Origin: an uncultured bacterium
GTDB lineage: Bacteria > Patescibacteriota > Minisyncoccia > Phycocordibacterales > DATDWN01
Assembly: GCA_903861205.1 (NCBI GenBank)
Contig: CAIOTC010000017.1
Location: 1-42,525 of the forward strand
Direction of reading: 5' to 3'
DNA: 42,525 nt
Both the position numbers and the translations under genes were made by a program. The notes below the pieces were generated by a model. That model worked only from the letters and a program-made list of their open reading frames with translations, did not search any database and had not been told where the DNA came from. The number at the start of each line of letters is the position of its first letter. Position 1 is the first letter of the stretch. Positions 173 to 38,184 of the stretch are shown piece by piece.

Positions 173-1279
173 TTATTTTAGGCCATTATTTAGATACTCC
201 ATTATAATTTCATGAACCTCATCGGCGTTTTCCGCTTCCATCAATTTCATTCGCAATTCTTTGGCACCATCAAAGCCATTTACGTACGCTTTGAAATGTT
301 TTTTCATGACGGCAAACGATTTTCCCTGCCCTATCGGCGGTTTCGGCTGAACGATTTCCGAAAAAAGTTTTGTGTGTTCGTCGAGAACTTTTAGTTTTTC
401 AGGAACCCCAAGGGGAACCCTTAAATTTCCAATTCCCAAGGGTTCCCCTTTGGGTTCATTCGATGCGGGTGCGAACAACCACGGGTTGCCGAAAATGGCG
501 CGGCCGATCATCACGCCGTCGCAGCCGGTTTCGCGCGCTTTTTGTTTGGCGTCCGCTACGCTCGTCACATCACCGTTGCCGAAAATGAGTGTCTCACTTT
601 TTTCTCCGTTTGGTCTGCGCCAAGCATCGCGAATCTCCACAGCGCGTTTTATATGTTCCCATCGCGCCGGCACCAGCGAGAGTTCTTTTCGCGTCCGAGC
701 GTGAATGGTGATAACCGCCGGTTTCGTTTCGAGCAAAGCCGGTAACCATGTTTCCAGTTCATTTTTATTCCAGCCAATTCGAGTTTTGACGGAAATTGGT
801 ATCTCCCCGAGGAGAGACCTTGGGGTGCCTAAGGACTCACCTCGGGGAGACCTCTGAATGCGGGCGCCTTGTTTGGCGGCCAAAATAATTTCCTGCGCCA
901 GTTTAGGATTCTGCATTAGCTTCGCGCCGGCGCCCTGCTTTTCCACGCTTTTGTCCGGACAACCCATGTTGATGTCGATGCCGTCAAAACCAAGTTCGAC
1001 GGCCAGCTCGGCGGCTTTACGCATCATCTCCGGATCGCTCGTAAAAAACTGCGCCACGATAGGTCGTTCGCTTTCATCGAAAGCCAAATCGCCGATCAGC
1101 GCTTCCCTACCGCCCAGAAAAAGTCCGTCCGCCGAAACAAACTCCGTCCACATCACGTCCGGCTTGCCGTATTTGGCAATAATTGCTCGAAAAGCCCGAT
1201 CGGTAACATCCGCCATCGGCGCCAGGCACAATATTGGCTCGCCCTTCTTTTCTTTTTTTAACTTCTGCCAAAAATTCAT
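173..1279 (-). CDS. dus: tRNA-dihydrouridine synthase (Dus family). Start moved to the ATG giving MNFWQKL; the track ORF begins at an upstream TTG.
   Basis: LCLAPMADVTDRAFR, GFDGIDINMGCP and KTRIGW motifs are typical of the Dus TIM barrel. The gene contains two in-frame hairpin segments (403-457, 802-850). Confidence 0.9.
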   Translation of the reverse strand: MNFWQKLKKEKKGEPILCLAPMADVTDRAFRAIIAKYGKPDVMWTEFVSADGLFLGGREALIGDLAFDESERPIVAQFFTSDPEMMRKAAELAVELGFDGIDINMGCPDKSVEKQGAGAKLMQNPKLAQEIILAAKQGARIQRSPRGESLGTPRSLLGEIPISVKTRIGWNKNELETWLPALLETKPAVITIHARTRKELSLVPARWEHIKRAVEIRDAWRRPNGEKSETLIFGNGDVTSVADAKQKARETGCDGVMIGRAIFGNPWLFAPASNEPKGEPLGIGNLRVPLGVPEKLKVLDEHTKLFSEIVQPKPPIGQGKSFAVMKKHFKAYVNGFDGAKELRMKLMEAENADEVHEIIMEYLNNGLK

Positions 1280-3641: not shown

Positions 3642-3892
3642 TTCGAGAACTTCGTTGGTCCTCTAGAAGATGTATGTTTTCAACTTTTGACAATCCTGAA
3701 GAAACCAGAGTATTCTATAAAACTCCTTTCTCCGCTTTCCCAAGGCGGTATCTTAGGGAGGGAAAGACCGGAAATGAACGTTGGTCTTTAATCAAACTAT
3801 CACAAATGCAAAATTTTGCAAATGTTAGTCAGAGAGGGGCATCCTCTCGATTCGGGGTTGAGAAGATGCCCCTCTCTGATATAATTATTATC

Positions 3893-4796: not shown

Positions 4797-7043
4797 ATGA
4801 CAAAACTTTTAATCGTTGAATCTCCGGCAAAAGCAAAAACAATTTCAAAATATTTGGACGGCAAGTACGAGGTGGTCGCCAGTGTCGGACACATTCGTGA
4901 TTTGCCGAAATCAAACAAAATCGCCATCGATATTCCAGGCGGTTTTATTCCGCATTACGAAATTTCCAAAGGCAAAGAAAAAATTGTTTCGGAAATAAGA
5001 TCGCTCGCTAAAAAAGCTGACATTGTCCTGCTAGCCACCGACCCCGACCGCGAAGGCGAGGCAATCGCTTGGCATATCGAACAGCTCATCAGAGGTGATT
5101 TTCCAAATTCCAAAGTCAAAAAAACGGAAACCGACGACAAAATTAAACGTGTCAGCTATCACGAAATCACCAAAGAAGCTATCGAAGAAGCTCTGGAACA
5201 TCCGAGGGAAATCGATCAGAATTTGCGCCAAGCCCAGGAAGCTCGACGCGTTTTGGACAGGCTTGTCGGCTACGATTTATCCGGACTCATCTGGAAAAAA
5301 GTGCGTTACGGACTTTCAGCCGGACGCGTTCAGTCGCCCGCTTTGCGCATCATCATGGAACGCGAGCGCGAAATCCGCGCTTTCAAATCGCACAAGTTCT
5401 GGGTTATTTCCGCCGATGTTATTCCCCAAGGTGACACCTTGGGGGAAAAGTTTACCGTTGTCTGCGAAAAAGAACCGACCATCAAGGGCGAGGTAGAGCA
5501 GATTATTTTGGACGCTGAAAAAGCCGGAAAAGAAAACAGCTGGTACGTCAAAGATGTCAAAGAAACGCAAGTTAAGAAAACTCCGCGACCACCGTTCATC
5601 ACTTCCACGCTCCAGCAGTCGGCCAGCACGCGTCTCGGTTTCGCTCCATCGCGTACAATGGGCATCGCTCAAAAACTTTACGAATCCGGTTACATCACAT
5701 ACATGCGCACAGACTCAACCAACCTCTCTCAGCTCGCGCTCGGCCAAATCGCCGGTGAAATAGAGAAAAGATTTGGTAAAGATTTTTTGCAGTTCAGAAA
5801 ATATGCAGCCAAAAGCAAAAATGCCCAGGAAGCCCACGAAGCAATTCGCCCGACGCACATGTCCGTTGAAAAAGCCGGGCACACCGATGAACAGCAAAAG
5901 TTGTACGAACTTATCTGGCACCGCACACTCGCTTCGCAGATGCGCGACGCCGAAACTTTGCGAACAAAAATCACAGCAAACGTGGCTGGCGACAAAGTTC
6001 CAGATTTTTCCTCTGTCGGTTCGCGTGTCATTTCTCCCGGCTGGCTTTTGGGCGACCCTGCTTCGCGAGGCGAAGATGTGGAATTACCGAAAGTAAAAAC
6101 TGATGAAAATCTTACGCTTGAAAAAGTTAGCACTGAGGAAAAAGAAACGGAACCGCCGACAAGATATTCCGAAGCCGGATTAGTCAAGGAATTGGAAAAA
6201 CGTGGCATCGGCCGACCTTCGACGTACGCTTCGATTATCAAAACGATCGAAGACCGCGGATACGTAGAAAAAATAAACAAAGCTCTTGTGCCGACGGACA
6301 CAGGCGATGTCGTTTCGTCATTTTTGGAAAAAAATTTCGAAAGTTACATCAGCGACGATTTCACTGCCGAGATGGAAGACAAACTCGACCTTATCGCTGA
6401 GGGCAAGGAAGACTACACCAAGATGCTGACAAAGTTTTACAAGCCGTTTTTGGCTGACGTCAAAGCCAAAGATAAATTGGACAAAGTGACAAACCTCGGC
6501 GACGCCGATCCAAAATTCAAATGTCCGATTTGCGGAGGTCCGATGATTATCAAACTTTCGCGTGGCGGGAAATTTTTGTCATGCGCCAAATATCCGGACT
6601 GCGACGGGGCGCTGACCATGGACGGACAGGAAATCAAAAAAGATGAACCGATCGGTGTTGATCCGGAAAGCGGTTTGCCAATTTTTGTCATGATTGGAAA
6701 ATATGGACCTTATGTACAGCTCGGCGAACGAGCCAGTGGCAAAGGTAGCACAAAGGCCGCCAAACCGAGAATGGCTAGTGTGCCAAAAGGCAAGGATTTG
6801 TCGACGATTACTTTGCAGGAAGCGCTAAAATATTTATCGCTGCCGCGCGTCCTCGGCGTCCATCCGGCTACGGGCGAAAAAATTTCCGCCAATGTCGGAA
6901 TGTTTGGACCGTACGTCGTTCACCAAAAAGATTTTCGGTCGCTCAAAGCGCCAGATGATGTTTACACCGTCGAACTCCCCCGCGCTCTGGAAATTTTCGC
7001 TCAAGAGAAGAAAAAACGCGGGTTTGCGAAGAAGAAAAAGTAA
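4797..7043 (+). CDS. topA: DNA topoisomerase I
   Basis: A TOPRIM start (LLIVESPAKAKTISKYL), the active-site region YITYMRTDS and a C-terminal Cys4 zinc ribbon (CPICGG...CAKYPDC) are present. The size is 748 aa. Confidence 0.95.
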   Translation: MTKLLIVESPAKAKTISKYLDGKYEVVASVGHIRDLPKSNKIAIDIPGGFIPHYEISKGKEKIVSEIRSLAKKADIVLLATDPDREGEAIAWHIEQLIRGDFPNSKVKKTETDDKIKRVSYHEITKEAIEEALEHPREIDQNLRQAQEARRVLDRLVGYDLSGLIWKKVRYGLSAGRVQSPALRIIMEREREIRAFKSHKFWVISADVIPQGDTLGEKFTVVCEKEPTIKGEVEQIILDAEKAGKENSWYVKDVKETQVKKTPRPPFITSTLQQSASTRLGFAPSRTMGIAQKLYESGYITYMRTDSTNLSQLALGQIAGEIEKRFGKDFLQFRKYAAKSKNAQEAHEAIRPTHMSVEKAGHTDEQQKLYELIWHRTLASQMRDAETLRTKITANVAGDKVPDFSSVGSRVISPGWLLGDPASRGEDVELPKVKTDENLTLEKVSTEEKETEPPTRYSEAGLVKELEKRGIGRPSTYASIIKTIEDRGYVEKINKALVPTDTGDVVSSFLEKNFESYISDDFTAEMEDKLDLIAEGKEDYTKMLTKFYKPFLADVKAKDKLDKVTNLGDADPKFKCPICGGPMIIKLSRGGKFLSCAKYPDCDGALTMDGQEIKKDEPIGVDPESGLPIFVMIGKYGPYVQLGERASGKGSTKAAKPRMASVPKGKDLSTITLQEALKYLSLPRVLGVHPATGEKISANVGMFGPYVVHQKDFRSLKAPDDVYTVELPRALEIFAQEKKKRGFAKKKK

Positions 7044-7250: not shown

Positions 7251-7300
7251 CTTTTTCAGTGGTAATTTTTCAGAAAATCACTACAATAGAGACGAACCTG

Positions 7301-16167: not shown

Positions 16168-16240
16168 GTACAAAAAGAGTACCAAATTTTTCGATTTGAT
16201 ACAACTTTTGTCATAAAGGTTCGACCTTGATGCCCAGTTC

Positions 16241-18925
16241 CTAAGGTCGAACCTTGGAGGAGGAATCCGACACAAAACTCTCAGTCACAAACGAACCACG
16301 ACGGCCTTTTTTGACAGTAAGGATATACTCCTCGCCTTTCATATCCACTGCAATTTCCCCACCTTTGGAAATTCCCTTGCTGACAATGAGCGAGGCAATC
16401 GGCGTCAGAATTTTATTTTGGATCAATCGTCGAAGCGGGCGAGCGCCATACTGCGGATTGTAACCTTCCTTGGCCAAGTGGTCGTAAACCGCTTGCGTCA
16501 ATTCGAGTGTAATTTCTTTTTGAGCCAATCTGTCTTTCACAATATCGATTTGAATTTTGACAATTTCGGCGATAGCTTCCCTGCTCAAAATGTCAAAGAC
16601 GATGATGTCGTCGAGACGGTTCAGAAATTCCGGTCGGAAGTGATCTTTCAGCGCTTCCATCACTTTTGTTTTGGCATCTTCGTAACCGGCCTTTTCATTT
16701 TTGTCGACGGCGAAACCGATTTTTTGCATTTTGTCGATGTACTGCGAGCCGATGTTCGACGTCAAAATGATAACCGTGTTGCGGAAATTGGCCACGCGGC
16801 CTTTCGCGTCCGTCAATCGTCCGTTGTCGAGAACTTGAAGCAAAATGTTGAAAACTTCCGGATGAGCTTTTTCGATTTCGTCGAAAAGAATAACCGAGTA
16901 TGGGCGATGTCGAACAAGCTCCGTCAAATTTCCACCCTCCTCGTAACCGACATAGCCAGCCGGCGCGCCGATCAGTTTCGAGACGGAATGTTTTTCCATG
17001 TATTCGGACATGTCAATTCTGATGAGTGCTTTGTCATCGTCGAACATGAATTGCGCCAGCGCTTTGGTCAGCTCTGTTTTTCCCACGCCAGTCGGACCGA
17101 GGAAAAGGAACGAACCGATCGGACGATTCGGATCGGCCACCCCAGCACGCGAACGTTTAACCGTGTCGGAAATTTTTATGACAGCTTCTTTTTGGCCGAC
17201 AATGCGCTTTTCCAAAACATCTTCCATGCGTGAAAGTTTATCCGCTTCCTCCTCGAGCATTCGCGAGACTGGAATTCCCGTCCATTTTGAAACAATCGAA
17301 GCGATATCGTTTTCGGTCACTTCCTCCTTCAAAATTCTGCGCGAACTTTGCAATTTTTTCAATTTTTTCGATTTTGAATCCAAATCTTTTTCATAAGCGG
17401 GGATTGTGCCATAGCGAATCTCGGCCGCCTTTGACAAATCCACCCGCCCTTCGGCAACATCGGCTTCCCGACGCGCTTCCTCGAGTTGCTTCTTTAAATT
17501 TTTGATGTCGCTGACCGTTTCCTTTTCATTATTCCACTTCAATTCCAACTCGCCTGTTTTTTCTTTCAAATCGGCAATTTCTTTTTCGATTTCTTTGACA
17601 CGAGACTTGGATTTTGAATCGGTTTCTTTTTTGAGTGCCTCGCGTTCGATTTCAAGCTTAACCACTTTCGAATGCGTCTCCTGCAAAATCGGTGGCATAT
17701 TTTCTAGCGCAATTTTCAGATGCGAAGCCGACTCGTCGATCAGGTCGACCGCTTTGTCCGGCAAAAATCTGTCGGCGATATAACGACTTGAAAGGTTGAC
17801 CGCGGACACAATGGCTTCATCGGTGATGCGCACACCGTGGTAGAGCTCATACTTTTCTTTCAGTCCGCGCATAATGGTGATGGCATCGTCGATCGACGGC
17901 TCGTTGACGTAAACAGGCTGAAAGCGACGAGTCAGCGCCGGATCCTTTTCGATATATTTTTGATATTCCTTGAGTGTTGTCGCGCCAATCGCCCGCAGTT
18001 CTCCGCGCGCCAGTGCCGGTTTGAGCATGTTCGAAGCGTCGAGCGAACCCTCCGCTGCGCCGGCTCCGACAATGGTGTGAATTTCATCGACGAACAAAAT
18101 TATTTTGCCGTCGGAACGTTCGATTTCTTTCAAAATATTTTTCAGACGTTCCTCGAACTCCCCGCGATATTTCGTGCCGGCCACCAAAAGTCCGAGGTCA
18201 AGCGAAACGAGTTCCTTGTCTTTGAGCGATTCCGGCACGTCGTGGGTGGACATGCGGATGGCCAAACCCTCGACGATGGCGGTTTTGCCGACACCAGCCT
18301 CACCGATCAGAATCGGATTATTTTTCGTTCGACGAGAAAGAATCTGAATGATGCGCGAAATTTCACTGTCGCGTCCGATGACCGGATCGAGTTTATTCTG
18401 GTGAGCCAAGTGCGTCAGATTGCGAGTGTACTTGGAAAGCGCTTTAAACTTTTTTGGCGCTTCCTGCTCAACACTTTTCGTGCTCTTTATTTCCCCCAAA
18501 CAACGCAAAACAGTTTCCTTGTCGATTTTGAATTTCATCAAAAGGTCGTGCGCCGGGGAAGGCGTTTCGATGGTGGCGATGAAAAGATGTTCCACTCCGA
18601 CAAACTCGTCGCGCATGTCGGAAGCTACTTTTCCGGAAGCTTCGATGACTTGGGCCAGCTCGGGCGTCAAATAAATCTGATACGAAGCAGAAAGTGTTTG
18701 GCCTGTTTCGGTGCCTTCGATGGTGTCGAGAAGCGAATCGGTCAGAAGTATAGTGTCCACCTCGAGACGATCGAGAATCGACGGGACGATCGATTCTTCC
18801 TGCAAAATAAGCGCGGTCAAAAGGTGGAGCGGGCTGACATGATTTTGACCGCGTTCAATAGCCAGCTCGTGAGCTTTGCGAATGGATTCTTTGGCTTTTG
18901 TTGTAAATTTTCCAAATGGAGGCAT
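16241..18925 (-). CDS. clpB: ATP-dependent chaperone ClpB
   Basis: A Clp N domain, two AAA+ modules ([16 protein letters not shown]) and a long coiled-coil middle domain are present. The size is 894 aa. Confidence 0.95.
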
Positions 18926-19430: not shown

Positions 19431-21443
19431 ATGAATAAGAAAACACTTACGGGACCGATATCAATCAATTCCAAGGGAATTGGTTTTTTTGATTTGCCGG
19501 ACAAAAAAGAGGAATCGCTGGAAATTCAGCCTGAGAATTTGGCGCGGGCTTTTCACGGAGATGTCGTTGAAGTCCAAAAGCTTGGTGGTCCTAAACCGAG
19601 AAAAAGTCTTGGTCGGGCGAGAGAAGTCAAAGAGCAAGCCAAAGTGGTCAGAATAATTTCTCGCGCCAAAACTCAATTCGTCGGCATAATCCAAAAAACA
19701 GACGACAAATCATTTTTGATTCCGGATGATAAAAGAATGTACGTGGATATTTTTATTGACCCAAAATCTTTAGCAAGGACAGTCCTTGCTAAAACTGAAA
19801 ACCAGAAAATTCTTGTAGAAATCACCGACTGGCCGGAAACGGAGAAAAATCCGCGCGGAAAAGTTGTTAAAGTCATCGGTACAGCCGGCGAAAACAACAC
19901 CGAGATGGAATCAATCGTTTTGGAAAAAGGTTTCCGAGTCGACTTCCCTGCCGAAGTTTTGGCCGAGGCGGAAAAAATTAAAAATGAATACAAAAGTCAT
20001 TTTGCCGAGGAAGTGAAAAATCGCCGCGACATGCGCGAAACTTTAACCATGACTATCGATCCTGCCGACGCCAAAGATTTTGACGATGCCATTTCTTTTA
20101 AAGAACTTTCCGACGGAACTTTTGAAATCGGCGTGCATATTGCCGACGTGTCATATTTCGTCACGCCCGGCACAGTGCTTGATCGCGAGGCGGAAAAACG
20201 AGGACTGTCAGTTTATCTCGTCGATCGAACTATTCCGATGTTGCCGGAAGTTTTAAGTAATGACCTTTGTTCTCTCAATCCAAACGAGGACAAGTTCACT
20301 TTTTCGGCCGTTTTCAAAATCGACAAAAATGCCAAGATTTTAGACAAATGGTTTGGCCGAACTGTCATTCACAGCGACAAAAGATTTTCATACGAAGACG
20401 CTCAGAAAGTTTTGGACAATGCGAGCTCACCTGGTGTCAACGGCGAAGCAACGTGGTCACCGGGTGTGGGCGCATTGTCCAAACTAAACAACCTCGCAAA
20501 AATTCTGGAGAAGCAAAAATTTGGCGCAGGCGCAATTAATTTTGAAACAGACGAAGTTAAATTCGTTTTGGACGCGGCCGGCAAACCTCTTTCAGTTTAC
20601 AGAAAAACTCGCCTGGACACGCACAAGCTTGTCGAGGAATATATGCTCCTGGCCAATCGCGCGGTCGCCGAACATATTTTCCATTCTCAAAATAACGAGT
20701 CCTTAGCAAGAACTGTTCTTGCTAAAAAACAAAGTGTTTACAGAATTCACGGCAAACCTGATCCGGAACGCATCGAAGCATTGGCGTTTTTTTTGAAAGC
20801 GCTTGGTTTTGATTTGCGAAACGAAAAAGGTTCTGTCACCTCGCGCGACATCAACAAACTGCTCAAGCAGGTGGAAGGCACACCGAACGAAGAACTGATC
20901 AAAACCGCCACCATTCGCAGTATGGCCAAAGCCGTTTACTCGACCAAAAATATCGGGCACTTCGGTCTGGCTTTCAGATTTTACACGCACTTCACCTCGC
21001 CTATTCGCCGATATCCCGATTTGCTGGTGCACAGATTTTTGGAACGCGAAATCGATGGCGGAAAAATTGCTCCAAATGAATACGAGAAATTTGAAAAGTC
21101 ATGCTTGGCACTCTCCGAACTGGAAAAGAAAGCCAGCGACGCAGAAAGAGCCAGCATCAAATACAAGCAGGTTGAATACATGCAATCGCATGTCGGCGAA
21201 ACTTTCCAAGGCACTATCACCGGCGTAACCGACTGGGGAATTTACATCGAGGAAAAAATTACCAAATGCGAAGGCATGGCAAAACTACGCGACCTGAATG
21301 ACGACTATTATGTCCTCGACGAAAAAAATTACACAATCCGCGGCCAGCGCACCGGCAAAAAATACACACTTGGTGATTCTGTCACATTCAAAGTTGTGGC
21401 GGCAGACATGGAGAAAAGAGTTTTGGATTACCAGATTTTGTAA
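19431..21443 (+). CDS. rnr: Ribonuclease R (RNB family 3'-5' exoribonuclease)
   Basis: The RNB core (TIDPADAKDFDDAIS, VYLVDRTIPMLP, FTSPIRRYPDLLVHR) and a C-terminal S1 domain are present. The size is 670 aa. Confidence 0.9.
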   Translation: MNKKTLTGPISINSKGIGFFDLPDKKEESLEIQPENLARAFHGDVVEVQKLGGPKPRKSLGRAREVKEQAKVVRIISRAKTQFVGIIQKTDDKSFLIPDDKRMYVDIFIDPKSLARTVLAKTENQKILVEITDWPETEKNPRGKVVKVIGTAGENNTEMESIVLEKGFRVDFPAEVLAEAEKIKNEYKSHFAEEVKNRRDMRETLTMTIDPADAKDFDDAISFKELSDGTFEIGVHIADVSYFVTPGTVLDREAEKRGLSVYLVDRTIPMLPEVLSNDLCSLNPNEDKFTFSAVFKIDKNAKILDKWFGRTVIHSDKRFSYEDAQKVLDNASSPGVNGEATWSPGVGALSKLNNLAKILEKQKFGAGAINFETDEVKFVLDAAGKPLSVYRKTRLDTHKLVEEYMLLANRAVAEHIFHSQNNESLARTVLAKKQSVYRIHGKPDPERIEALAFFLKALGFDLRNEKGSVTSRDINKLLKQVEGTPNEELIKTATIRSMAKAVYSTKNIGHFGLAFRFYTHFTSPIRRYPDLLVHRFLEREIDGGKIAPNEYEKFEKSCLALSELEKKASDAERASIKYKQVEYMQSHVGETFQGTITGVTDWGIYIEEKITKCEGMAKLRDLNDDYYVLDEKNYTIRGQRTGKKYTLGDSVTFKVVAADMEKRVLDYQIL

Positions 21444-21956: not shown

Positions 21957-24254
21957 TTATTTCGCCACGGCAACGGCTTGATCAAATGCGACCGAGAGAA
22001 GTTTCGAGCCACCACCGAGACCCATGGTTACGCCGTACAAAATCCCCGCACGGGACATTGTTTCGCGGTTGTGGGTAATGACAATGAGTTGCGAACGTTT
22101 GGAAAGATTTTCCACCATATCGCCATACTTTTTGGAATTGGCTTCGTCGAGAGCGGCGTCTGTTTCGTCTAGAATAATAAACGGCGGAGGATTGACTTGA
22201 GAGATGGCAAAAAGCAAAGCGATGGAAGTCAGTGCCCTCTCCCCGCCGGAAAGCATCATCAAACCTTTCACTTTCTTTTTCGGTAACACAACATCGATAT
22301 CAATCCCATCCTCACTTTCCGCTCCGGTTTCTTCAATGGCAAGGGCAGCCCTTGCCATTTCATCACCGTCTTCATTTTCAAATAGGTCATCAATTTCTTT
22401 TTTCTTGCGTTTTGGCGCGGAAATAACGGACAAGCTGGCCTCACCACCACCGAACATCAGAGCAAAATATTCTTTGAACTGCTGGTTGATTTTTTCCACG
22501 CCGGTTTTGAATTCGTTGGAAAGTCGTTCATCCAAATCTTTTATGAGATCTGTCAGCGAATCGGCCGAACCGGAAAGGTCAGTCAGCTCTTTTGCCAGAA
22601 ACTCATCTCGCTCCGAGGCATCAGTGTATTCTTTCATTACATCGGCCCCACCGATTCCGCCGGCATCTTCCAAACGAATTTTTATTTTTTCGATTGTTCG
22701 TCTGCGTTCTTCCTGATTTGCGCGTGGTTCGTCAAAATCAAAAACAAGCGACTCAAATTGCAAAACAGCCGTGCCAAGCATCATTCCAAGCTCTGTTAAT
22801 TCCCTATTGAAATCCTCTTTGACTATTCGCAAAGTTTCCTCCTCCGACTGCAAGCTGTGAATTTGCGATCTGACTTCCTGCTCCTCCGCCATGATTCTGA
22901 AAACCGCTTTTTCGGCGTCGCGATTGGTATCTTTTTCCGTGTTTATTTTTTCCTGTAAAGCCGAATACTCGCGGGACAATTTCGCTTCGTTTGCAATAAC
23001 ATCACCCGCTTCACTGGCAGCAATTTCCTTTTTTCTCCTCAAATCCGCCAAATCTTTTTGGGCTTCAACCAAAAGCGACGTATCCACCTTGTCTTTATTA
23101 CTTTCAATAAAATCTGACAAAAGTTTTCCAATTTCATCAATTTTCCTTATCAAAATATCCACTTTCTCCTGGTCCCAGGTGTCACCTGGGACCAGTTTTT
23201 TGGAATCGGAAATTATTTGTTCTATTTCTTTTTGAACAACTTCGACAGAAACAAGCGTGACTGTTTTGTGCAAATATGAGTTGGCCAGTTCCTCCTGCTT
23301 TTTTATCATTCGGGCCAAGGAGGTTATCTCACCGTCCAGTTCGCCGGACTGACGTAAAAGCTCGTCTTTCTTTTTTCGCGTTTCGTGAAGTTCCCTCTCG
23401 AGTGAAATCAGTTCGTCCGACATGACATCGCGATGTTGTGCGCCTTCCAAAATTTTCTTGGCTTCGGAGAGTTCCTCTTGCAACTTTTTTTCCTGTTTTT
23501 CCAGCGGATGTTTTTTGCCGGAAATATTTTTCTCAATGCGCTTTATATATTCGTCCTCGCGTTTGCAATACTCCAGCGCTTTATCCTGCAAATCTTTTTT
23601 CATTTCAAGCGTCTTCTCCACTTTTTCCACCTGCTTTTTGAGGAATTTGATATGCGGCAAAATTTCTCGTCGAAGAGATTCCACTTGTGCAATATTTTCA
23701 CGAGTTTTCAAAAGTTTTTTCTCACTTTCCTGTTTTTTGTATTGATAAAGTTTCAAACCGAGCGCATCCTCAATCATGGCTTTGCGTTCTTTGATGCTGG
23801 CATTCAAAATTCTGTCCGCTTCGCCCTGCGAAATAATGTGATGTCCGGACGAACCGATATGCGCCGAATGCAAAAGTTCCAACACATCTCGCAAACAAAC
23901 TTGCGAACCGTTGATGGAATACTCGTTGACACCGTCGCGATGCACAACACGTTCAATGATCACCTCCTCGAAATCCACAGGTAGAAATTTGGATTTGTTG
24001 TCGAAAATTATTTTGACGCTTGCCCGATTCGCTCTAGGCAAATCCCCCGCGCCGTTAAAAATCAAATCTTCGCCTTTTTTGCCACGCAGGGATTTGATCG
24101 ACTGCTCGCCAAGAACAAAAGAAAACGCCTCGGCCACATTGGACTTGCCCGAACCATTCGGCCCAACCACCGCAGTAACATTCGAAGTGAAAAGTAATTC
24201 GCTCTTTTTGGCGAAACTTTTGAATCCGGTGAGTTCAATAGATTTCAGATACAT
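21957..24254 (-). CDS. smc: SMC-family chromosome segregation ATPase, short form (765 aa)
   Basis: The Walker A head (VVGPNGSGKSN), long coiled coil, signature motif LSGGERALT and Walker B FIILDETDAALD are present. I could not recognise a canonical hinge. Confidence 0.8.
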   Translation of the reverse strand: MYLKSIELTGFKSFAKKSELLFTSNVTAVVGPNGSGKSNVAEAFSFVLGEQSIKSLRGKKGEDLIFNGAGDLPRANRASVKIIFDNKSKFLPVDFEEVIIERVVHRDGVNEYSINGSQVCLRDVLELLHSAHIGSSGHHIISQGEADRILNASIKERKAMIEDALGLKLYQYKKQESEKKLLKTRENIAQVESLRREILPHIKFLKKQVEKVEKTLEMKKDLQDKALEYCKREDEYIKRIEKNISGKKHPLEKQEKKLQEELSEAKKILEGAQHRDVMSDELISLERELHETRKKKDELLRQSGELDGEITSLARMIKKQEELANSYLHKTVTLVSVEVVQKEIEQIISDSKKLVPGDTWDQEKVDILIRKIDEIGKLLSDFIESNKDKVDTSLLVEAQKDLADLRRKKEIAASEAGDVIANEAKLSREYSALQEKINTEKDTNRDAEKAVFRIMAEEQEVRSQIHSLQSEEETLRIVKEDFNRELTELGMMLGTAVLQFESLVFDFDEPRANQEERRRTIEKIKIRLEDAGGIGGADVMKEYTDASERDEFLAKELTDLSGSADSLTDLIKDLDERLSNEFKTGVEKINQQFKEYFALMFGGGEASLSVISAPKRKKKEIDDLFENEDGDEMARAALAIEETGAESEDGIDIDVVLPKKKVKGLMMLSGGERALTSIALLFAISQVNPPPFIILDETDAALDEANSKKYGDMVENLSKRSQLIVITHNRETMSRAGILYGVTMGLGGGSKLLSVAFDQAVAVAK

Positions 24255-25449: not shown

Positions 25450-25467
25450 ACACGGAGTATAACACAC

Positions 25468-26779: not shown

Positions 26780-26892
26780 CAATTTCCAATGATCAATTTT
26801 CAATTTTCAATGAATTTTACAATGAACCAATCGTCCAATTGAAGAATTGATTCATTTATTGGAAATTGAAAATTGTTACTTGAAAATTTCCT
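26780..26892. repeat. Family W hairpin copy 2 (between the nusB start and the rpmF stop)
   Basis: The arms are caattttcaattttcaatgaat / attcatttattggaaattgaaaattg. The centre is caatgaaccaatcgtccaattgaagaattg. Confidence 0.75.
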
Positions 26893-28355: not shown

Positions 28356-29048
28356 TCAAACCAGGTTTTTGCAAAAAGATTTGCGATGAAAAAGGGAGAG
28401 ACCGTGAGTTTGAATGGCAGTGCGATGCGCGAGCGTGCCATAACCTTTGTGAATATGAAAATTGTAAAGCGGATATTTTTTGCTCGCTTTGCACATTAGT
28501 TTGTCACGCGAAACTTTTGCCAAAATCGACGCCCAGGCGATAATTTTTTCTTTTTCGTCGCCTTTTATAATAGTAAATTGTTTTACTTGTTTAACAGAAT
28601 ATCCGTTTGTAAGTTCAGCTGGAACTTTTAATCCCCCATCTAATAAAATTTTTAATTTAAAATTTTTAATTTTTAAATAATTTTTAATGTCTAAATTTCC
28701 AAAACCTTTTGCAATGGCTTTTTTGATGCATTTGGAAATTCCGATTTTGTCGATTTCTTTGTTTGAGATATGAACAATTTGAGCTTGCAGAAGGGCACCT
28801 TCTGCAGAATTCGTGCAGAAGGTGCCCTTCTGCAACTGTTCCAAGACTTTTGCATACTTCTCGCGAGATTCCGGAGAAAGTTTTTTGCTGTCTTTGCCGA
28901 GTGGTGGCAAACGCCCCGCCACACCGGCGGGCAAGTTGTTTCGCTTCAGTTTGGCGTACAATTTTTCCTCACACATCACAATCCCCACCGTCACAGGCCC
29001 TGCCAATGGTCCCCTCCCAACTTCGTCAATGCCGATAATGTAGTTCAT
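28356..29048 (-). CDS. rnhB: Ribonuclease HII. Start moved to MNYIIGIDEVGRGPLAGPV.
   Basis: GIDEVGRGPLAGPV, DSKKLS and ASILAKVSRD are RNase HII motifs. The gene carries a 51-nt double hairpin and an AT-rich in-frame block. Confidence 0.9.
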   Translation of the reverse strand: MNYIIGIDEVGRGPLAGPVTVGIVMCEEKLYAKLKRNNLPAGVAGRLPPLGKDSKKLSPESREKYAKVLEQLQKGTFCTNSAEGALLQAQIVHISNKEIDKIGISKCIKKAIAKGFGNLDIKNYLKIKNFKLKILLDGGLKVPAELTNGYSVKQVKQFTIIKGDEKEKIIAWASILAKVSRDKLMCKASKKYPLYNFHIHKGYGTLAHRTAIQTHGLSLFHRKSFCKNLV

Positions 29049-29076
29049 AAAAATAGAGTTTACGCATTTGTGCACC

Positions 29077-29172
29077 ATTCTCCCTTTCATAAAGGGAGTG
29101 GCCGAAGGCCGAGGGATTTTTTGATTTCAAAATCCTCCGCCCTGCGGGCACCTCCTTTAAGAAAGGAGGATT
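29077..29172. repeat. Gene-less pair of family-U units (reverse then forward orientation, 12-nt spacer)
   Basis: The sequence is attctccctttcataaagggagtggccgaaggccgagggatt - ttttgatttcaa - aatcctccgccctgcgggcacctcctttaagaaaggaggatt. Confidence 0.8.
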
Positions 29173-29750: not shown

Positions 29751-32700
29751 ATGTCAAAGTTTATCCACTTACATACTCACAGTCATTACAGCTTGCTCAA
29801 TGCCCTGCCGAAACTCGACGAGCTGGTCAAGACTGCCAAGAAGATGGGAATGGCTTCGCTGGCTTTGACCGACAACGGCAATCTGTACGGCGCCATTGAG
29901 TTTTACAAGGAATGCCAGAAACACGAGGTCAAGCCGATCATTGGCGTCGACGCTTATGTCGCCTACCGTTCGCGAAATGACAAACAAGCCGGCATCGACA
30001 AGGAACGCTATCGACTAGTCCTACTGGCCGAAAACGAAACCGGTTACAAAAATTTGATCCAACTCGTCACCATTTCCCACCTGGAAGGTTTTTATTACAA
30101 ACCGCGTGTGGACAAAGAAATTTTGGAAAAATATCACGAGGGACTGATCGCTATCGCACCGTCATTTTCGAACGACATTTCACAATCGCTGGAAACGATG
30201 CATGTGGAGCAGGCGATGGAGCGACTGGAGTGGTACAAGAAAGTCTTTAACAAAAAATCCAACAAGGGGGACCCTTGTGGTTCAGGATTACAAGGGTCCC
30301 CCTTGTTGGACCAAAGTCAGACCTCGGGGAACTTCTTCATTGAAATCACCCACCATCCTGAAATAAAAGGTCACGAGGAAAAAATGAAAAAACTTTTGGA
30401 CTTCGCTAGGCAAACGAACACACCGATTGTGGCGGCGCATGATGTCTATTATATGAATCCCGAGGACCGAGCCGCTCGCGAGACACTCATGGCTGTCATG
30501 AACAACGGCGACATATCCGACAAGTTGGACGAAAAAACGGACGACTTTTCATTCATTTCGCCGGAAACTGCCGAAAAATATTTCAAAAATTTGCCTGACG
30601 CGCTTGAAAACACCGAAAAAATCGCCGAGAGATGCAACTTGAAACTCGAACTGGGCAAATGGGTTTTCCCGAATTACATTTTGGATAGCGGACTTTCATA
30701 TGACGAGGAACTTCGCAAGGAAGCGCTGGCCGGTTTCGAAAAACGCGGGCTTTCGCAAACAGCCGAGGAAATGGAGCGCATGGAGTATGAATTGAAAGTG
30801 ATCAAGGACAAAGGTTACTCGCCATACTTTTTGGTGGTGGCGGACCTGCTTCGCTTTTCGGAAGAAAATGGAATTTTCACAAACATCAGAGGTTCGGTGG
30901 CCGGCTCTCTCGTCACCTACCTGACCGGCGTCACCAAAGTCAATCCACTGGTTTACAAAATTCCGTTTGAAAGATTTCTCAACCCAGAGCGTCCGTCGGC
31001 GCCCGACATCGACATGGACTACGCCGACAACCGTCGCGACGAGGTGATTGATTACGCTCGTCGAAAATACGGCGTGAACAACGTTGCCCAAATCGGTACG
31101 TTCGGTACGATGGCCGCCCGCGGATCCGTGCGCGACGTCACTCGCGCCATGGGTTTTGCCTACTCGCTCGGAGACTCGATTGCCAAACTGATTCCGATGG
31201 GCGCGCAGGGATTTCCCATGACCATCGACCGCGCTCTCAAAGAAGTGCCGGAGTTGAAAGAATTGTACAAAACTCAGGCCGATGTCAAAAAAATAATCGA
31301 CATGGCCAAAAAAATCGAGGGTTGTGCCCGCCACATCTCGGTGCACGCTGCCGGCGTAGTTATTTCGCCCACAACGCTGACCGATTTCGTTCCGCTTCAG
31401 TACGATACCAAAGGCGACAACAAAATCATCACACAGTACGACATGCACGCCGTCGAGGACGCCGGGCTTTTGAAGTTTGACTTTCTCGGCATCAGAAACC
31501 TTTCCATTTTGGCCGACGCCGTTCATCGCGTCGAAGCGATTGAAGGCAAAAAAATCGACATCGAACAAATTCCGCTCGACGACAAAAAAACTTTCGACAT
31601 GCTCACTCGTGGAGAAACGATCGGACTTTTCCAGCTCAACGGCGACGGTATGACGAGATGGTTGAAAGAACTCAAACCGACAACCATTTTCGATATCAAC
31701 GCCATGGTCGCTTTGTACCGACCCGGCCCGATGGAGTGCATTCCGCAATACATCGAGCGCAAACATGATCCGAAAAAAATAAAATTTCTTGATCCGCGAA
31801 TGAAAACGATTTTGGATCAATCATTCGGCGTCATCACTTACCAGGACGACGTGCTCATGTGCGCCATCAAACTCGGCGGATATTCCTGGCTCGAAGCCGA
31901 CAAACTGCGTAAAGCCATGGGCAAGAAAATTCCGGCTGTTATGCAGGCCGAGAAAGAAAAACTTCTGGCCGGACTTTTGAAAAATGGAATGTCGCCAGAA
32001 AAAGCGGACGAGCTGTGGAAGTTGATTGAGCCGTTTGCCGCCTACGGTTTCGGCAAAGCGCACGCCGCCAGCTATGGACGCGTGGCTTACCAAACTTCGT
32101 ACATGAAAGCCAACTTCCCTGCTATATATATGTCAGCCGTTCTGACTGCCGAGTCGGGCGACGTGGAAAAAGTGGCCGAAATCATTGGAGAGTGCAAGCG
32201 TATGAAAATTCCCGTTTTACCACCGGATATAAATCAGTCGTTCGGCGGGTTCAGTGTGGTGAAAGGCAAAAAAAGGGTGCCCCTTTTAAATCCTGACGAA
32301 AAGGGGCACCCTTTTTCTGATTCCGAATCAGACAAAATCAGATTTGGATTGACCACCATTAAAAATTTCGGTGAGGGAATCGGCGCGTCGATTATTGCCG
32401 AAAGAAAAGCGAACGGCGAATTCAAATCGCTTTCCGATTTTCTGCGCCGGATCAAAGATAAAAACTTGAACAAAAAATCGCTCGAGTCGCTCATCAAAGC
32501 CGGCGCGATGGATCGGTTCGGCGAACGCGCCACGCTTCTTTACAACTTGGAAACGTTGCTCGCCTTCAACAAAGAAGAACGAGCCAAGGAAACGGACCAG
32601 ACTTCCCTTTTCGGACTTTTGTCGGAGCCGGAAAAAGCGAGCGAAATTCATTTGGAAAAAGCACCGGTTTCAAATCCGGCCGATGCTTTGTTGTGGGAAA

Positions 32701-33056
32701 AGGAACTGCTCGGCCTGTACATTTCCGGCCATCCGCTGGACAGTTTCCGCCACAAATTGGAAGGTCGCGAAATGACTGTTAAAAAATTGAAGGAAACGGC
32801 CAAAGAAAAACAGATGGTCGTCCTCGGCGGAATCATCGAGGAAATCCGGCCAGTCATGACCAAAAAGGGCGACAAAATGATTTTTCTCAAAATGGCCGAC
32901 TTGTCCGACTCGATCGAAGCCGTCATTTTTCCGAAAACTTTTGAGGAGTTTCAAGACATTCTCGTGCCCGAAAGTTGTATCGTTGTCAAAGGCACTTTCT
33001 CCACGCGCAATGGCGGAATGTCGATCGTCGTCGACAAAGTCAAACAAATGGAATAA
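29751..33056 (+). CDS. dnaE: DNA polymerase III alpha subunit. Start moved to MSKFIHLHTHSHYS.
   Basis: The PHP domain (HLHTHSHYSLL), the polymerase core (PDIDMDY, YRPGPME, FGKAHAASY) and an OB fold are present. The size is 1101 aa, with two in-frame double hairpins. Confidence 0.95.
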   Translation: MSKFIHLHTHSHYSLLNALPKLDELVKTAKKMGMASLALTDNGNLYGAIEFYKECQKHEVKPIIGVDAYVAYRSRNDKQAGIDKERYRLVLLAENETGYKNLIQLVTISHLEGFYYKPRVDKEILEKYHEGLIAIAPSFSNDISQSLETMHVEQAMERLEWYKKVFNKKSNKGDPCGSGLQGSPLLDQSQTSGNFFIEITHHPEIKGHEEKMKKLLDFARQTNTPIVAAHDVYYMNPEDRAARETLMAVMNNGDISDKLDEKTDDFSFISPETAEKYFKNLPDALENTEKIAERCNLKLELGKWVFPNYILDSGLSYDEELRKEALAGFEKRGLSQTAEEMERMEYELKVIKDKGYSPYFLVVADLLRFSEENGIFTNIRGSVAGSLVTYLTGVTKVNPLVYKIPFERFLNPERPSAPDIDMDYADNRRDEVIDYARRKYGVNNVAQIGTFGTMAARGSVRDVTRAMGFAYSLGDSIAKLIPMGAQGFPMTIDRALKEVPELKELYKTQADVKKIIDMAKKIEGCARHISVHAAGVVISPTTLTDFVPLQYDTKGDNKIITQYDMHAVEDAGLLKFDFLGIRNLSILADAVHRVEAIEGKKIDIEQIPLDDKKTFDMLTRGETIGLFQLNGDGMTRWLKELKPTTIFDINAMVALYRPGPMECIPQYIERKHDPKKIKFLDPRMKTILDQSFGVITYQDDVLMCAIKLGGYSWLEADKLRKAMGKKIPAVMQAEKEKLLAGLLKNGMSPEKADELWKLIEPFAAYGFGKAHAASYGRVAYQTSYMKANFPAIYMSAVLTAESGDVEKVAEIIGECKRMKIPVLPPDINQSFGGFSVVKGKKRVPLLNPDEKGHPFSDSESDKIRFGLTTIKNFGEGIGASIIAERKANGEFKSLSDFLRRIKDKNLNKKSLESLIKAGAMDRFGERATLLYNLETLLAFNKEERAKETDQTSLFGLLSEPEKASEIHLEKAPVSNPADALLWEKELLGLYISGHPLDSFRHKLEGREMTVKKLKETAKEKQMVVLGGIIEEIRPVMTKKGDKMIFLKMADLSDSIEAVIFPKTFEEFQDILVPESCIVVKGTFSTRNGGMSIVVDKVKQME

Positions 33057-33060
33057 TGAC

Positions 33061-33219
33061 GCAAATCTCAATTTCGCATTCCTTTCCAGAGTAACCTCAA
33101 AAACTCCTGCGAGTTTTTGAGGCTGATCCTCGGCCAAAACTTGTCAAGATGGAATGCCTTGACAAGACCATGCTTTTGGCCTGCGGAGCCTCCGGAAAGG
33201 AATGCAAAATGAGATTTGC
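33061..33219. repeat. Family L element copy 6
   Basis: The outer arms are gcaaatctcaatttcgcattcctttccagag / ctccggaaaggaatgcaaaatgagatttgc. The core has tcctcggcc...cttgtcaag...cttgacaag...catgcttttggcctgcggagcctcc, parallel to copies 5 and 8. TAGTGGTGA follows. Confidence 0.8.
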
Positions 33220-33783: not shown

Positions 33784-34032
33784 ATGGTAAATGCGGAGGT
33801 TGTTAGGACCGGAAATGAAAACAACGTAAACCTCATCAGAAGGTTCACCAAACGCGTCCAGGGATCGGGCGTTTTGCCTCGTGTCCGAAGCATCCGCTAC
33901 TCGTCTCGCAAGCAATCCGAGTACGTTAAAAAGAAAAAAACTCTCAAAGTTTTGAAACGCCGCGAAGAAGTCAACGAGCTCATCAAAATGGGAAAAATGG
34001 TGGAGAATACCAGGGGACCGAAGAAAAAATAA
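33784..34032 (+). CDS. rpsU: 30S ribosomal protein S21. The start is uncertain between 33775 and 33784.
   Basis: MVNAEVVRTGNENNVNLIRRFTKRVQGSGVLPRVRSIRYSSRKQSEYVKKKK fits the S21 pattern (ALRRFKR...G.l.e.R.R..Y.kPSe.rk). Confidence 0.8.
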   Translation: MVNAEVVRTGNENNVNLIRRFTKRVQGSGVLPRVRSIRYSSRKQSEYVKKKKTLKVLKRREEVNELIKMGKMVENTRGPKKK

Positions 34033-34136
34033 TTTTTCAAGTATCAATTTCCAATTTCCAATGAATTTCTCAATGAACCAATTGTCCAATTGAAGAATTG
34101 GAAAATTCATTGGAAATTGGAAATTGGAAATTTTTA
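34033..34136. repeat. Family W hairpin copy 3 (between rpsU and ybeY)
   Basis: The arms are caatttccaatttccaatgaattt / aaattcattggaaattggaaattgg. The centre is ctcaatgaaccaattgtccaattgaagaattgg. Confidence 0.8.
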
Positions 34137-34142: not shown

Positions 34143-34523
34143 ATGAACAACATTTTCTCCATAACCAACACTACGCGAGGCGAAGTTCCTGGTGTTGATT
34201 TTTTGCCTATTAAGGACTCTGTACTGGGTAAAAAATACGAACTTTCACTGGTTTTTGTCGGCGATAAAAAATCACAAACGCTCAACAACAAATATCGAAA
34301 ATTTAACAAACCGACAAATTGTCTCAGTTTCTCGCTCGGCAAAAATTCCGGAGAAATTTTCATCAATTTGGGCAAGGCAAAAAAAGAAGCGCCGAGCTTT
34401 GGCATGAAATTCGAAAAGTTCATAATTTACTTGTTTATTCACAGTTGCTTGCATTTGAAAGGAATGGATCATGGGAGTATAATGGAGAAAGCAGAAGAAA
34501 AAATGCTAAAAATTTTCAAGTAA
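34143..34523 (+). CDS. ybeY: rRNA maturation endoribonuclease YbeY. Start moved to MNNIFS.
   Basis: TNCLSFSL and the metal-binding motif HSCLHLKGMDH are present. The size is 126 aa. Confidence 0.85.
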   Translation: MNNIFSITNTTRGEVPGVDFLPIKDSVLGKKYELSLVFVGDKKSQTLNNKYRKFNKPTNCLSFSLGKNSGEIFINLGKAKKEAPSFGMKFEKFIIYLFIHSCLHLKGMDHGSIMEKAEEKMLKIFK

Positions 34524-34620
34524 CAATTTCCAATTTCCAATAAATGAATCAATTTTTCAATTGAACAATTGGTTCATTGGAAAATTCATTGAAAATTGGA
34601 AATTGGTCATTGAAAATTTC
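34512..34620. repeat. Family W hairpin copy 4 (between ybeY and ftsA; approximately the reverse complement of copy 2)
   Basis: The sequence is aaattttcaagtaacaatttccaatttccaataaatgaatc...gattcattgaaaattggaaattggtcattgaaaattt. Its centre is the reverse complement of the copy 2 and 3 centres. Confidence 0.8.
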
Positions 34621-37951: not shown

Positions 37952-38184
37952 AAAAATTTCTTAAAACATTACCTTTTCGGAGACGAAAGCCCGTCCAGCG
38001 ACGGGCTTTCTCTGTCCTCGGCCTCGATTTGTCAATGAGCCCCTCTCCAGTTTTAAGGTCTGGCCTTGGGAAATTGGCTGTTTAAGGCCAGACCTTTGGA
38101 ATCCAAAACTGGGGAGGGGTCGTTGACAAAACCATGCTCGAGGCCTGCGGATGCTCCGAAAAGGTAATGTTTTAAGAAATTTTT
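37952..38184. repeat. Family L element copy 8 (long form) carrying a nested double hairpin at its apex (38047-38112)
   Basis: Perfect 24-nt outer arms are aaaaatttcttaaaacattacctt / aaggtaatgttttaagaaattttt. The core is collinear with the reverse complement of copy 5. TAGTGGTGA follows. Confidence 0.85.

Follow-up and report, generated by a model that had tools for sequence, protein, structure and literature searches.

The dnaE gene (DNA polymerase III alpha subunit) of an uncultured member of the Patescibacteria, carried on a contig of 42,525 nucleotides (nt) (assembly GCA_903861205.1, contig CAIOTC010000017.1, positions 1 to 42,525; the whole stretch is called the window below), contains in its reading frame a perfect double hairpin, E5, which is absent from the closest orthologues. 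We regard E5 as probably an intragenic REPIN, that is, a hairpin-forming doublet of repetitive extragenic palindromic (REP) units, belonging to a system that resembles those of REPs and their REP-associated tyrosine transposases (RAYTs). In this reading, E5 consists of two inverted copies of a REP (ACAAGGG-NNN-CCCTTGT) and an 11-nt spacer, and the REP family is spread through the Patescibacteria. In relatives it is tied to a Y1/HUH tyrosine transposase (IS200/RAYT superfamily), the gene for which looks single-copy and is itself bracketed by these REPs.

As a first-pass annotation of this DNA had described, the arms of E5 are perfect 21-nt reverse complements (100% complementary) around an 11-nt loop, which was borne out by sequence reading and by a repeat finder, and each arm indeed contains ACAAGGG-NNN-CCCTTGT, with GGA and TCC as the respective loops (Table 1). 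The units are thus short palindromic stem-loops, as REPs are, and they are paired in inverse orientation across a spacer within one long hairpin, as in REPINs. The unit motif occurs twice in the window, with 0.00 occurrences expected from 100 dinucleotide shuffles, and by simple arithmetic 42.5 kb would be expected to contain ~2e-7 inverted repeats with perfect 21-nt arms and spacers of <=20 nt. For the region 30240-30335, the predicted RNA fold reaches -48.3 kcal/mol with a 25-bp stem (z = -6.9, 0 of 200 shuffles being as good), and the DNA fold reaches -26.4 kcal/mol (z = -6.3). The first base of E5 coincides with a codon boundary of the dnaE frame, in which the peptide is SNKGDPCGSGLQGSPLLD, and a run of six adenines (A6) lies immediately 5' of the stem. 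The spacer has 8 contiguous nt in common with the reverse complement of the spacer of E6, a second double hairpin in dnaE (P ~0.0014), and is identical at 8 of 11 positions to the spacer of E3, the element in dprA (P ~0.0045). In addition, when compared by eye, the 3' flank of E5 at 30308-30332 (CCAAAGTCAGACCTCGGGGAAC) is similar to the right-hand arm of E2, an element in dus, at 828-850 (CCTAAGGACTCACCTCGGGGAGA), with ACCTCGGGGA common to both. A second REP unit may have left this flank as its remnant, and this would account for an insert of 72 nt exceeding the 53-nt palindrome.

The segment bearing E5 is an insertion relative to orthologues. The net insertion amounts to 24 codons (72 nt), the palindrome making up 53 nt of it; the first-pass annotation had placed the flanks, KKVF and GNFFIEITHH, correctly, and its figure of 26 codons was slightly too high. 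Homologues of this DnaE come from the Patescibacteria (Parcubacteria/Paceibacterota), the closest being 79-82% identical (82% is the highest identity to the window DnaE in the protein collection) and mostly 30-40 residues shorter. At the site, the four closest homologues (P0002-P0005; homologous proteins carry P numbers and collected loci L numbers) read WYKK-x-F/Y-(KN/GEN/GQN)-NF[FY]IEITHH without interruption, 19 more Parcubacteria loci have just 3-4 residues in the form F/Y-G-x-[DEN]-(N)-F-F-x-E, and Pol III alpha of Thermus aquaticus, which aligns to query residues 3-160 and 192-333, has ~7 residues opposite 32 of the query, its sequence at the site being GDRFFIEIQNHG. The orthologue alignment and the Thermus protein therefore uphold the earlier claim that the hairpin segment interrupts a region which DnaE proteins read straight through. 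No equivalent segment appeared in orthologues from unrelated lineages; L203 has an independent and different palindromic insert in the same DnaE loop. The insertion lies in the PHP domain, between a predicted helix (residues 152-166) and the strand FFIEIT (195-200), which bears the E..HH residues, and E6 occupies, likewise in frame, a variable HhH-domain loop. An AlphaFold model of modest quality (mean predicted local distance difference test score, pLDDT, 66.5), used only with respect to the two inserts, renders residues 169-191 and residues 841-858 (E6) as low-confidence coil with pLDDT <50, and both inserts are accordingly predicted to be disordered loops. As an observation in its own right, the DnaE proteins of L202 (P0039) and L204 (P0095) have in common a ~19-aa non-palindromic insert, RPSA...EPSTRDL, which differs in position between the two proteins and whose copies diverge at synonymous sites; it is another kind of in-frame inserted module.

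Dispersed copies within a genome are characteristic of REPs, and the 42.5-kb window holds ~14 elements with an AAGG..CCTT apex, one of which is of E5 type. In total, there are seven double hairpins of one plan, two decayed ones and five single perfect palindromes. The apex AGG-N3-5-CCT is common to all 14, the doublets have GNA/TNC loops, and 12 of the 14 elements are intragenic, being located in dus, dprA, topA, rnr, smc, rnhB and dnaE. When rnr, smc, rnc, nusB, rnhB and dnaE were each aligned with 25 orthologues and insertions of at least 3 residues were counted, 11 window-specific insertions were obtained (in rnr, smc, rnhB and dnaE), six of which have perfect arms of 11-21 nt, compared with arms of at least 9 nt in 0.09% of matched random coding windows (n = 1100). 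Similarly, perfect inverted repeats with arms of at least 10 nt and spacers of up to 20 nt number 20 in the window versus 2 in 50 kb of the Escherichia coli rnhB-dnaE region. No direct repeat or target-site duplication was found at any of six window doublets, which is consistent with Y1 transposition. All six frames of E4 (the rnhB element) and five of the six frames of E5 are free of stops, random 51-mers averaging 3.6, and most elements are just modestly above random in this respect.

Units of the same sequence recur across the Patescibacteria, namely TGCAGAAGG-GCA-CCTTCTGCA (the E4 unit), CAAGGAC-N-GTCCTTG and ACAAGGG-NNN-CCCTTGT. In 1.5 Mb of Parcubacteria dnaE loci, CAAGG-N5-CCTTG was observed 19 times (1.4 expected), AGGAC-N-GTCCT 8 times (0.46 expected) and AAGGG-N3-CCCTT 10 times (0.75 expected). 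Repetition is also seen within single genomes: the two rnr copies of the window are identical at 21 of 23 positions, two copies in pheT of L169 share an identical 46 nt (the 38-nt doublet with 4 flanking nt at either end), one palindrome of L203 is present in both rnr and rnhB, and the 33-nt element TCCGCCTCATCGGACGGATCCGCCTTTGGCGGA (peptide SASSDGSAFGG) is present in two identical copies in smc of L001, at residues 501-511 and 630-640. The exact 21-mer of E4, TGCAGAAGG-NNN-CCTTCTGCA, was found in 36 stretches of species representatives of the Genome Taxonomy Database (GTDB), versus ~9 expected by simple arithmetic; these stretches are mostly from Patescibacteria, nearly all of those with a GCA/TGC loop, and seven contigs of WY3.bin89 carry E4-type copies. 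The E4-type unit is read in all six frames, in genes for TsaD, a class V aminotransferase, a class II aminoacyl-tRNA synthetase, FolD, an HhH-GPD glycosylase, Dus and an ATP synthase subunit, and the resulting peptides are unrelated (SAEGALLQ, LQKGTFCN and CRRAPSA), indicative of a repeat at the DNA level.

The E5-type doublet, with ACAAGGG-NNN-CCCTTGT twice, occurs in 61 GTDB stretches, half of which represent one repeat family of Amycolatopsis xylanica. We tabulated 31 copies, all outside Amycolatopsis; in high-GC genomes such as this one, open frames are no guide to the coding or non-coding position of matches. The two loops are mutually reverse complementary in 29 of the 31, and 23 lie in open frames of at least 200 codons. 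Peptides such as NKGHPC..YKGAPC and LQGDPLL..TRGPLV resemble NKGDPC..QGSPLL of E5, and at least 5 E5-type copies occur in E14_metabat.bin.167. Doublets of AAGGG-NNN-CCCTT are in frame in LepA, BipA, PheT, ParB, KsgA, a Mur ligase (MurD-like N domain) and NusA. Two repeat families were noted alongside. That of the high-GC actinomycete Amycolatopsis xylanica (L091-L153, L251-L295) is a large GTGACAAGGGCGGCCCTTGTCAC doublet family with the 7-nt stem of E5, and four loci of the Paceibacterota SMAG_U3062 (L100, L134, L141 and L188) have multi-copy AAGGGG(A/T)CCCCTT hairpins joined to a DnaA-box-like TTATCCACA spacer, which were intergenic at 3 of 3 copies checked in L141.

In relatives, these units are linked to genes of a Y1/HUH transposase. 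The collected loci were searched by tblastn with E. coli RayT, which gave weak matches adjoining palindromes, and then with the matches themselves, yielding 17 transposase open reading frames (ORFs) of ~200-240 aa with the motifs YHxxNRG, YIHxNP and, as the HUH motif, MPNHFHIL. Seven of these ORFs were scanned; their Pfam Y1_Tnp scores were 22-43 bits, with six reaching the gathering cut-off of 23, and the NCBIfam model for the REP-associated tyrosine transposase (REP_Tyr_transpos) was the sole match for six and by far the best for the seventh (L163), with E-values of 1e-9 to 5e-16 and 38-59 bits, below its 80-bit cut-off. The family comprises 1386 members at E <= 1e-10, all of them Y1_Tnp, which are named transposase or RayT where their sources give a name and come from Doudna-, Zambryski- and other Patescibacteria. 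Among the genes examined, no tnpB was seen adjoining a transposase gene.

Window-type palindromes (of E4 type, of rnr type or with the ACAAGGG stem) stand at one or both gene ends in 10 of the 17 Y1 loci, and on both sides in six of those 10. The E4 unit, the same 21-mer as in the rnhB gene of the window, brackets the transposase gene in L244/L208 and L246 and adjoins one end of it in L215, L216, L220 and L240, L215 and L001 being from one isolate, the closest relative. The flanks in L030 are GACAAGGAC-A-GTCCTTGTC, with the rnr-type core, and those in L114 and L163 have the stem of E5 itself, ACAAGGG/CCCTTGT. The palindromes adjoining the genes of L151, L190 and L234 are of types absent from the window; for L025, L175 and L183 the flank listing held no qualifying repeat, and a separate ORF scan showed palindromes beside L175 and L183. 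The core of the L175 flank, ACATCGGATGT, recurs in an in-frame double hairpin in dnaE of the same genome (L076). A transposase gene lies beside the palindrome in 6 of the 36 rnhB-type stretches (288 kb), versus a background of 2 per 1.45 Mb of dnaE-centred loci. A Y1 gene bracketed by its cognate units is the arrangement that defines REP-RAYT systems (PMC3116915, PMC3337134). In addition, six distinct transposase genes, seen in seven loci because L208 and L244 share one of them, have an extra copy of the palindrome in their interior, usually ~140-200 nt from the gene start and ~545 nt from it in L208/L244; this may hint at self-regulation or a domesticated relationship over simple parasitism.

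By analogy with REP-RAYT and IS200/IS605 systems, we propose that the doublets are mobilised by the Y1 transposase, which would recognise REP hairpins in single-stranded DNA, such as the lagging-strand template, and would cut, rejoin and insert copies without target-site duplication; in the host of E5 its gene presumably lies outside the window. An insertion into a gene would in most cases be lethal, and in-frame copies in tolerant loops would persist. E5 may have survived in dnaE because the insert is 72 nt long (24 codons), has no stop in the dnaE frame and lies in a length-variable surface loop of the PHP domain. It would be transcribed and translated through, giving a disordered loop rich in Gly, Pro and Ser that is presumably neutral and plays no role in the polymerase. 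More broadly, and with somewhat less than an even chance in our estimation, the Patescibacteria could possess a REPIN-Y1 system that has been made compatible with coding, in which the units are free of stops in most or all six frames, insertion into genes occurs about as often as coding density predicts, and the elements are a main source of lineage-specific insertions in the proteins of such ultra-small cells, including those of essential replication, translation and division genes.

Several points weigh against assigning E5 to such a system. The window holds one E5-type copy, its elements differ among themselves in stem sequence, and no Y1 transposase gene was found in its 42.5 kb. REPs and REPINs are extragenic by definition, whereas E5 is intragenic; the classical GTAG/CGTC tag is absent; and the inserted segment measures 72 nt versus 53 nt for the REPIN. 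Some single palindromes add about half of their own length, and the arms of E7, a decayed inverted repeat in rnr, overlap ancestral codons, which suits local template switching. The transposases fall below the NCBIfam equivalog cut-off and could, as far as their sequences indicate, be IS200-like rather than RAYT proper, and we infer the movement of the elements from comparison of sequences.

An origin in place, by template switching during replication, with later conversions keeping the arms perfect and neither a mobile element nor a transposase involved, is an alternative that we consider unlikely. In its favour, template switching is known to generate and preserve perfect hairpins (PMC8794818, PMC5453318). 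Relative to orthologues, the gain at three of four single palindromes is just about half their own length, and the 12-base gain at rnr site B repeats, in reverse complement, the ancestral-looking codons before it. The outer arms of E7 fall on residues with counterparts in orthologues, and orthologous rnhB elements have changed on all half-stems together. However, local copying leaves unexplained that many genomes have identical 21-mers at sites which are not homologous, that cores such as CAAGG-N5-CCTTG are in 10- to 17-fold excess, that E5, E6 and E3 have a common spacer and that palindromes and Y1 transposase genes are tightly linked, and neither half of E5 resembles the ancestral GGA-GAA-AAT. 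At the rnhB site, the double hairpin is present in the window and in L001 in a co-varied form, and the site of L002 is empty and 13 codons shorter; the arms are perfect in both genomes (22/22 and 26/26), whose DnaE proteins are just 79% identical, and the window and L001 differ at six right-arm positions, each with a matching change in the left arm. Compensatory change has also been reported for classical REPINs (PMC3116915). The perfect arms are kept by selection on a hairpin that the Y1 enzyme would recognise, by homogenisation through template switching, or by both. Because of the position of the outer arms of E7 and the half-length additions at three single palindromes, local template switching probably contributes to the growth and repair of the window elements.

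It appears quite improbable that the hairpin has been kept for a role of its own in the dnaE mRNA or DNA, as an RNase III site, a signal for translational pausing or frameshifting, or a binding site for a dimeric protein. A 25-bp RNA stem is long enough for RNase III, and E5 as RNA forms a perfect stem of this length; RNase III is encoded in the window (24757-25467, by orthologue match to genes listed as RNase III), the A6 run directly precedes the stem, and the structure is conserved with covariation in the rnhB pair. Against such a role, dnaE of the closest relatives is without the hairpin, and equivalent elements occur in unrelated genes as well as in intergenic DNA, in every frame and either orientation, a pattern that points to a parasite and not to a regulator of one gene; stops end the -1 frame after 28 codons and the +1 frame after 36, with no spacer between the A-run and the stem, the stem sequences are too varied for one binding protein, and no Rfam family matches the hairpin beyond sub-threshold generic hairpins. 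We attach very little probability to the view that the 24 additional residues are adaptive and give the PHP domain a new interaction loop, the DNA symmetry being incidental: although the loop varies in length among Parcubacteria DnaE proteins, with inserts there in other lineages, and K-G-x-P peptides recur in other proteins, perfect 21-nt complementarity is impossible from peptide selection, the same DNA unit read in different frames gives unrelated peptides, the nearest relatives are without the segment, and the segment is predicted to be disordered. Fold-back chimeras can yield palindromes, yet an assembly or amplification artefact of this kind is scarcely credible here, because the frame of an essential gene is preserved across the 72-nt insert and dozens of independent assemblies, produced by different assemblers, contain this kind of element; the same contig bears a dozen similar elements in frame, and L001 has the orthologous rnhB element at the same site.

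Other identities were tried and rejected. At the gathering score, Rfam matched 3 tRNAs and nothing else in the whole window, and a permissive Rfam scan of 30150-30420 gave just sub-threshold generic hairpin matches to miRNA precursors. The ends of E5 (ATCCAAC ... GTTGGAC) fit the R''/R' core pattern of integron attC sites, RYYYAAC/GTTRRRY, but this fit is confined to E5 among the elements and was taken as coincidence; attC sites also have extrahelical bases and stand at the ends of cassettes beside an integrase, whereas the stem of E5 is bulge-free and lies inside dnaE. A frameshift or bypass site is contradicted by the A6 run abutting the stem, by the early stops in the -1 and +1 frames, and by the broken frame that removal of 53 nt would leave. 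Excision of the palindrome as an intein or intron would likewise shift the frame, 24 aa are far too short for an intein, and there was no Rfam intron match. For a miniature inverted-repeat element derived from an insertion sequence (IS), the inverted ends are trivially present, with no flanking direct repeat at six doublets. A repeat at the protein level is at odds with copies read in different frames, and a DNA-uptake sequence or a parS-like or other single binding site seems unlikely, given stems that differ too much between elements.

Classical REPIN and REP-RAYT systems are exemplified by those of Pseudomonas fluorescens SBW25 and by the E. coli REPs and bacterial interspersed mosaic elements with RayT (PMC3116915, PMC3337134). 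As in these systems, two inverted short palindromic units and a spacer form one long hairpin, hairpin changes are compensatory, insertion leaves no target duplication, the families are genome- or lineage-specific, and a Y1/HUH gene is bracketed by cognate units, here in relatives. In contrast to classical extragenic REPINs, the elements are mostly intragenic and in frame (23/31 E5-type copies and 12/14 window elements), and they are much shorter, at 36-55 nt rather than ~70-110 nt. The foot of a classical REP palindrome carries GTAG or CGTC as a conserved tetranucleotide (PMC3733652), whereas no such tag was found in the flanks of E1, E3-E6 or the E4-type copies, and the L114 units start with GTAC. 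The Patescibacteria transposases, of ~205-240 aa and under the NCBIfam RAYT cut-off, also differ from E. coli RayT (165 aa), their genes often hold an internal REP, and their hosts are Patescibacteria, not Proteobacteria. Because the extragenic location and the GTAG/CGTC tag fail and the transposases lie outside the NCBIfam RAYT cut-off, we file the system as one that works like REPIN-RAYT and is a new variant rather than a standard member.

In-frame palindromic selfish DNA within protein genes was reportedly described by Ogata and colleagues in 2000 as Rickettsia palindromic elements (RPEs). These elements are also mentioned elsewhere (PMC10969869, PMC1779305). Like RPEs, E5 would be palindromic selfish DNA placed in frame in an often essential gene of a bacterium with a reduced genome and tolerated as an extra surface peptide, and by its sequence it appears to fit the pattern of an in-frame palindromic repeat in a protein gene (frame intact, absent from orthologues). 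RPEs, of ~100-150 bp and from Rickettsiales, are set apart by description from the 53-nt E5, whose host belongs to the Parcubacteria by its DnaE homologues; moreover, RPEs have no known transposase and are not REP doublets, whereas the E5 class has the doublet plan and a candidate transposase. IS200/IS605 elements and the palindrome-associated transposable elements derived from them, which lack a gene (PMC6006769), have in common with the system here a Y1/HUH enzyme that acts on single-stranded hairpins, hairpins at both gene ends and the lack of target duplication. Those elements have asymmetric left and right ends and are multi-copy as whole ISs; the gene here looks single-copy and the dispersed units are symmetric doublets. 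Hairpins made by template switching (PMC8794818, PMC5453318) are alike in their perfect stems, joint compensating changes and stems extended into the flank (E7, rnhB pair), but they are local copies, unlike a 21-mer that is the same in many genes and genomes and is linked to a transposase gene. No literature on palindromic or REP/RAYT elements in Patescibacteria was found, nor was the sequence string of E4, in the searchable literature, which is incomplete, so that a prior description is possible.

Table 1. Coordinates of E5, its host gene and the other palindromic elements discussed (window positions unless a locus is named).
Feature	Position	Strand	Description
dnaE, DNA polymerase III alpha, host gene	29751..33056	+	1101 aa; Met at 29751, frame intact
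DnaE 27-codon variable segment	30249..30329	+	NKKSNKGDPCGSGLQGSPLLDQSQTSG; stands in place of relatives' 3-residue G-x-N
DnaE insert junction peptide			GDPCGSGLQGSPLLDQSQTSGNFFIEITHHPEIK
E5, REPIN-like double hairpin	30258..30310	.	two inverted REP units and spacer; perfect 21-nt arms
E5 left arm	30258-30278		TCCAACAAGGGGGACCCTTGT
E5 right arm	30290-30310		ACAAGGGTCCCCCTTGTTGGA
E5 REP unit 1	30262..30278	.	ACAAGGG-GGA-CCCTTGT; 7-bp stem, GNA triloop
E5 REP unit 2	30290..30306	.	ACAAGGG-TCC-CCCTTGT; loop is reverse complement of unit 1 loop
E5 spacer	30279..30289	.	GGTTCAGGATT
E6, second dnaE double hairpin	32267..32319	.	AAAAGGG-TGC-CCCTTTT / AAAAGGG-GCA-CCCTTTT, 11-nt spacer
E4, double hairpin in rnhB	28785..28835	.	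TGCAGAAGG-GCA/TGC-CCTTCTGCA, perfect 22-nt arms
E3, double hairpin in dprA	3829..3879	.	GAGAGGG-GCA-TCCTCTC, 11-nt spacer
E1, double hairpin in dus	403..457	.	AAGGG-GAA-CCCTT / AAGGG-TTC-CCCTT
E2, degraded double hairpin in dus	802..850	.	87% complementary, CCCCGAGG...CCTTGGGG
Single REP-like palindrome in topA	5424..5444	.	CCCCAAGGTG-A-CACCTTGGGG
Single palindrome in rnr	19769..19793	.	TTTAGCAAGGAC-A-GTCCTTGCTAAA, peptide SLARTVLAK
Second rnr copy	20703..20725	.	TTAGCAAGAAC-T-GTTCTTGCTAA, peptide SLARTVLAK; one stem difference, compensated
E7, decayed inverted repeat in rnr	20411..20483	.	73 nt, 81% complementary; outer arms reach ancestral codons
Single palindrome in smc	22335..22359	.	AATGGCAAGGGC-A-GCCCTTGCCATT; 21-nt insert centred in ancestral AATT
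Single 27-nt palindrome in smc	23169..23195	.	CTGGTCCCAGGTG-T-CACCTGGGACCAG, peptide LVPGDTWDQ
Double hairpin, clpB 3' end / intergenic	16216..16255	.	AAGGTTCGACCTT ... AAGGTCGAACCTT
Intergenic double hairpin, ftsZ-trxB	38055..38096	.	AAGGTCTGGCCTT ... AAGGCCAGACCTT
Own flanking palindrome inside Y1 gene	L030 13787; L114 1245; L208 1795 / L244 3546; L215 7805; L220 3285; L234 4025; L246 3159		often in variable loop

The window also holds repeats of other types. Seven intergenic palindromes of the form CCTCCTTT-NNN-AAAGGAGG or CTCCCTTT-NNN-AAAGGGAG (21486-21504, 21520-21538, 21925-21943, 29080-29098, 29151-29169, 39446-39464 and 39472-39490) each consist of a Shine-Dalgarno-like sequence and its own complement and are often paired. 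Two of them bracket a gene for a DUF559 / Vsr-like endonuclease (21529-21900, - strand) between rnr and smc, a spot that is occupied by other small ORFs in the syntenic loci L001 and L002; this may be a mobile nuclease gene. Six longer intergenic inverted repeats (1293-1462, 7034-7257, 24616-24737, 25630-25828, 33071-33210 and 37952-38184) have arms of 20-49 nt with 58-171 nt between them. Several of these end in ...CTCCGAAAAGG...CTCGTAAGAAATTTT, their ends being just loosely alike on alignment, and one encloses the double hairpin between ftsZ and trxB. AT-rich intergenic palindromes of AATTTCCAATTTCCAAT repeats, with arms of up to 54 nt, lie at 26781-26888, 34031-34133 and 34510-34619, and the spacer of a dus double hairpin (AAATTTCCAATTCCC) resembles their motif. 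A perfect 32-nt even palindrome in miaA (ATTTTCATTCGCCTTC/GAAGGCGAATGAAAAT, 13498-13529) differs in type from the AAGG..CCTT family. With regard to gene models, the MurA ORF (EPSP_synthase fold, 11090-12601) bears an HTH_3 domain at its N terminus (residues 11-62), a fusion that is unusual provided that the start codon is correct, and the rnhB ORF (28356-29090) begins 14 codons upstream of the start seen in all orthologues (MNYIIGIDEVGRG), the true start probably being at 29048.

REPs and REPINs are textbook extragenic repeats, the biology of which has been worked out almost solely in Proteobacteria. Throughout the Patescibacteria we see this kind of element, matched in relatives by a Y1 transposase; there it is mostly intragenic and in frame, in genes such as dnaE, smc, topA, rnhB, pheT, nusA and those of ATP synthase. 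If our reading is true, part of the unexplained protein length variation and of the low-complexity loops in Patescibacteria would be accounted for, and selfish DNA in coding sequence would gain a second case, and a mechanistically tractable one, beside the RPEs, which have no known transposase. It would also be a warning to annotators and structure predictors that such loops are parasitic DNA and not functional protein segments. In addition, the Y1 protein and its 21-nt hairpin would offer a simple test bed for target choice by hairpin-specific transposases. A single hairpin becomes ordinary once it is explained; the class that it reveals is unexpected and testable.

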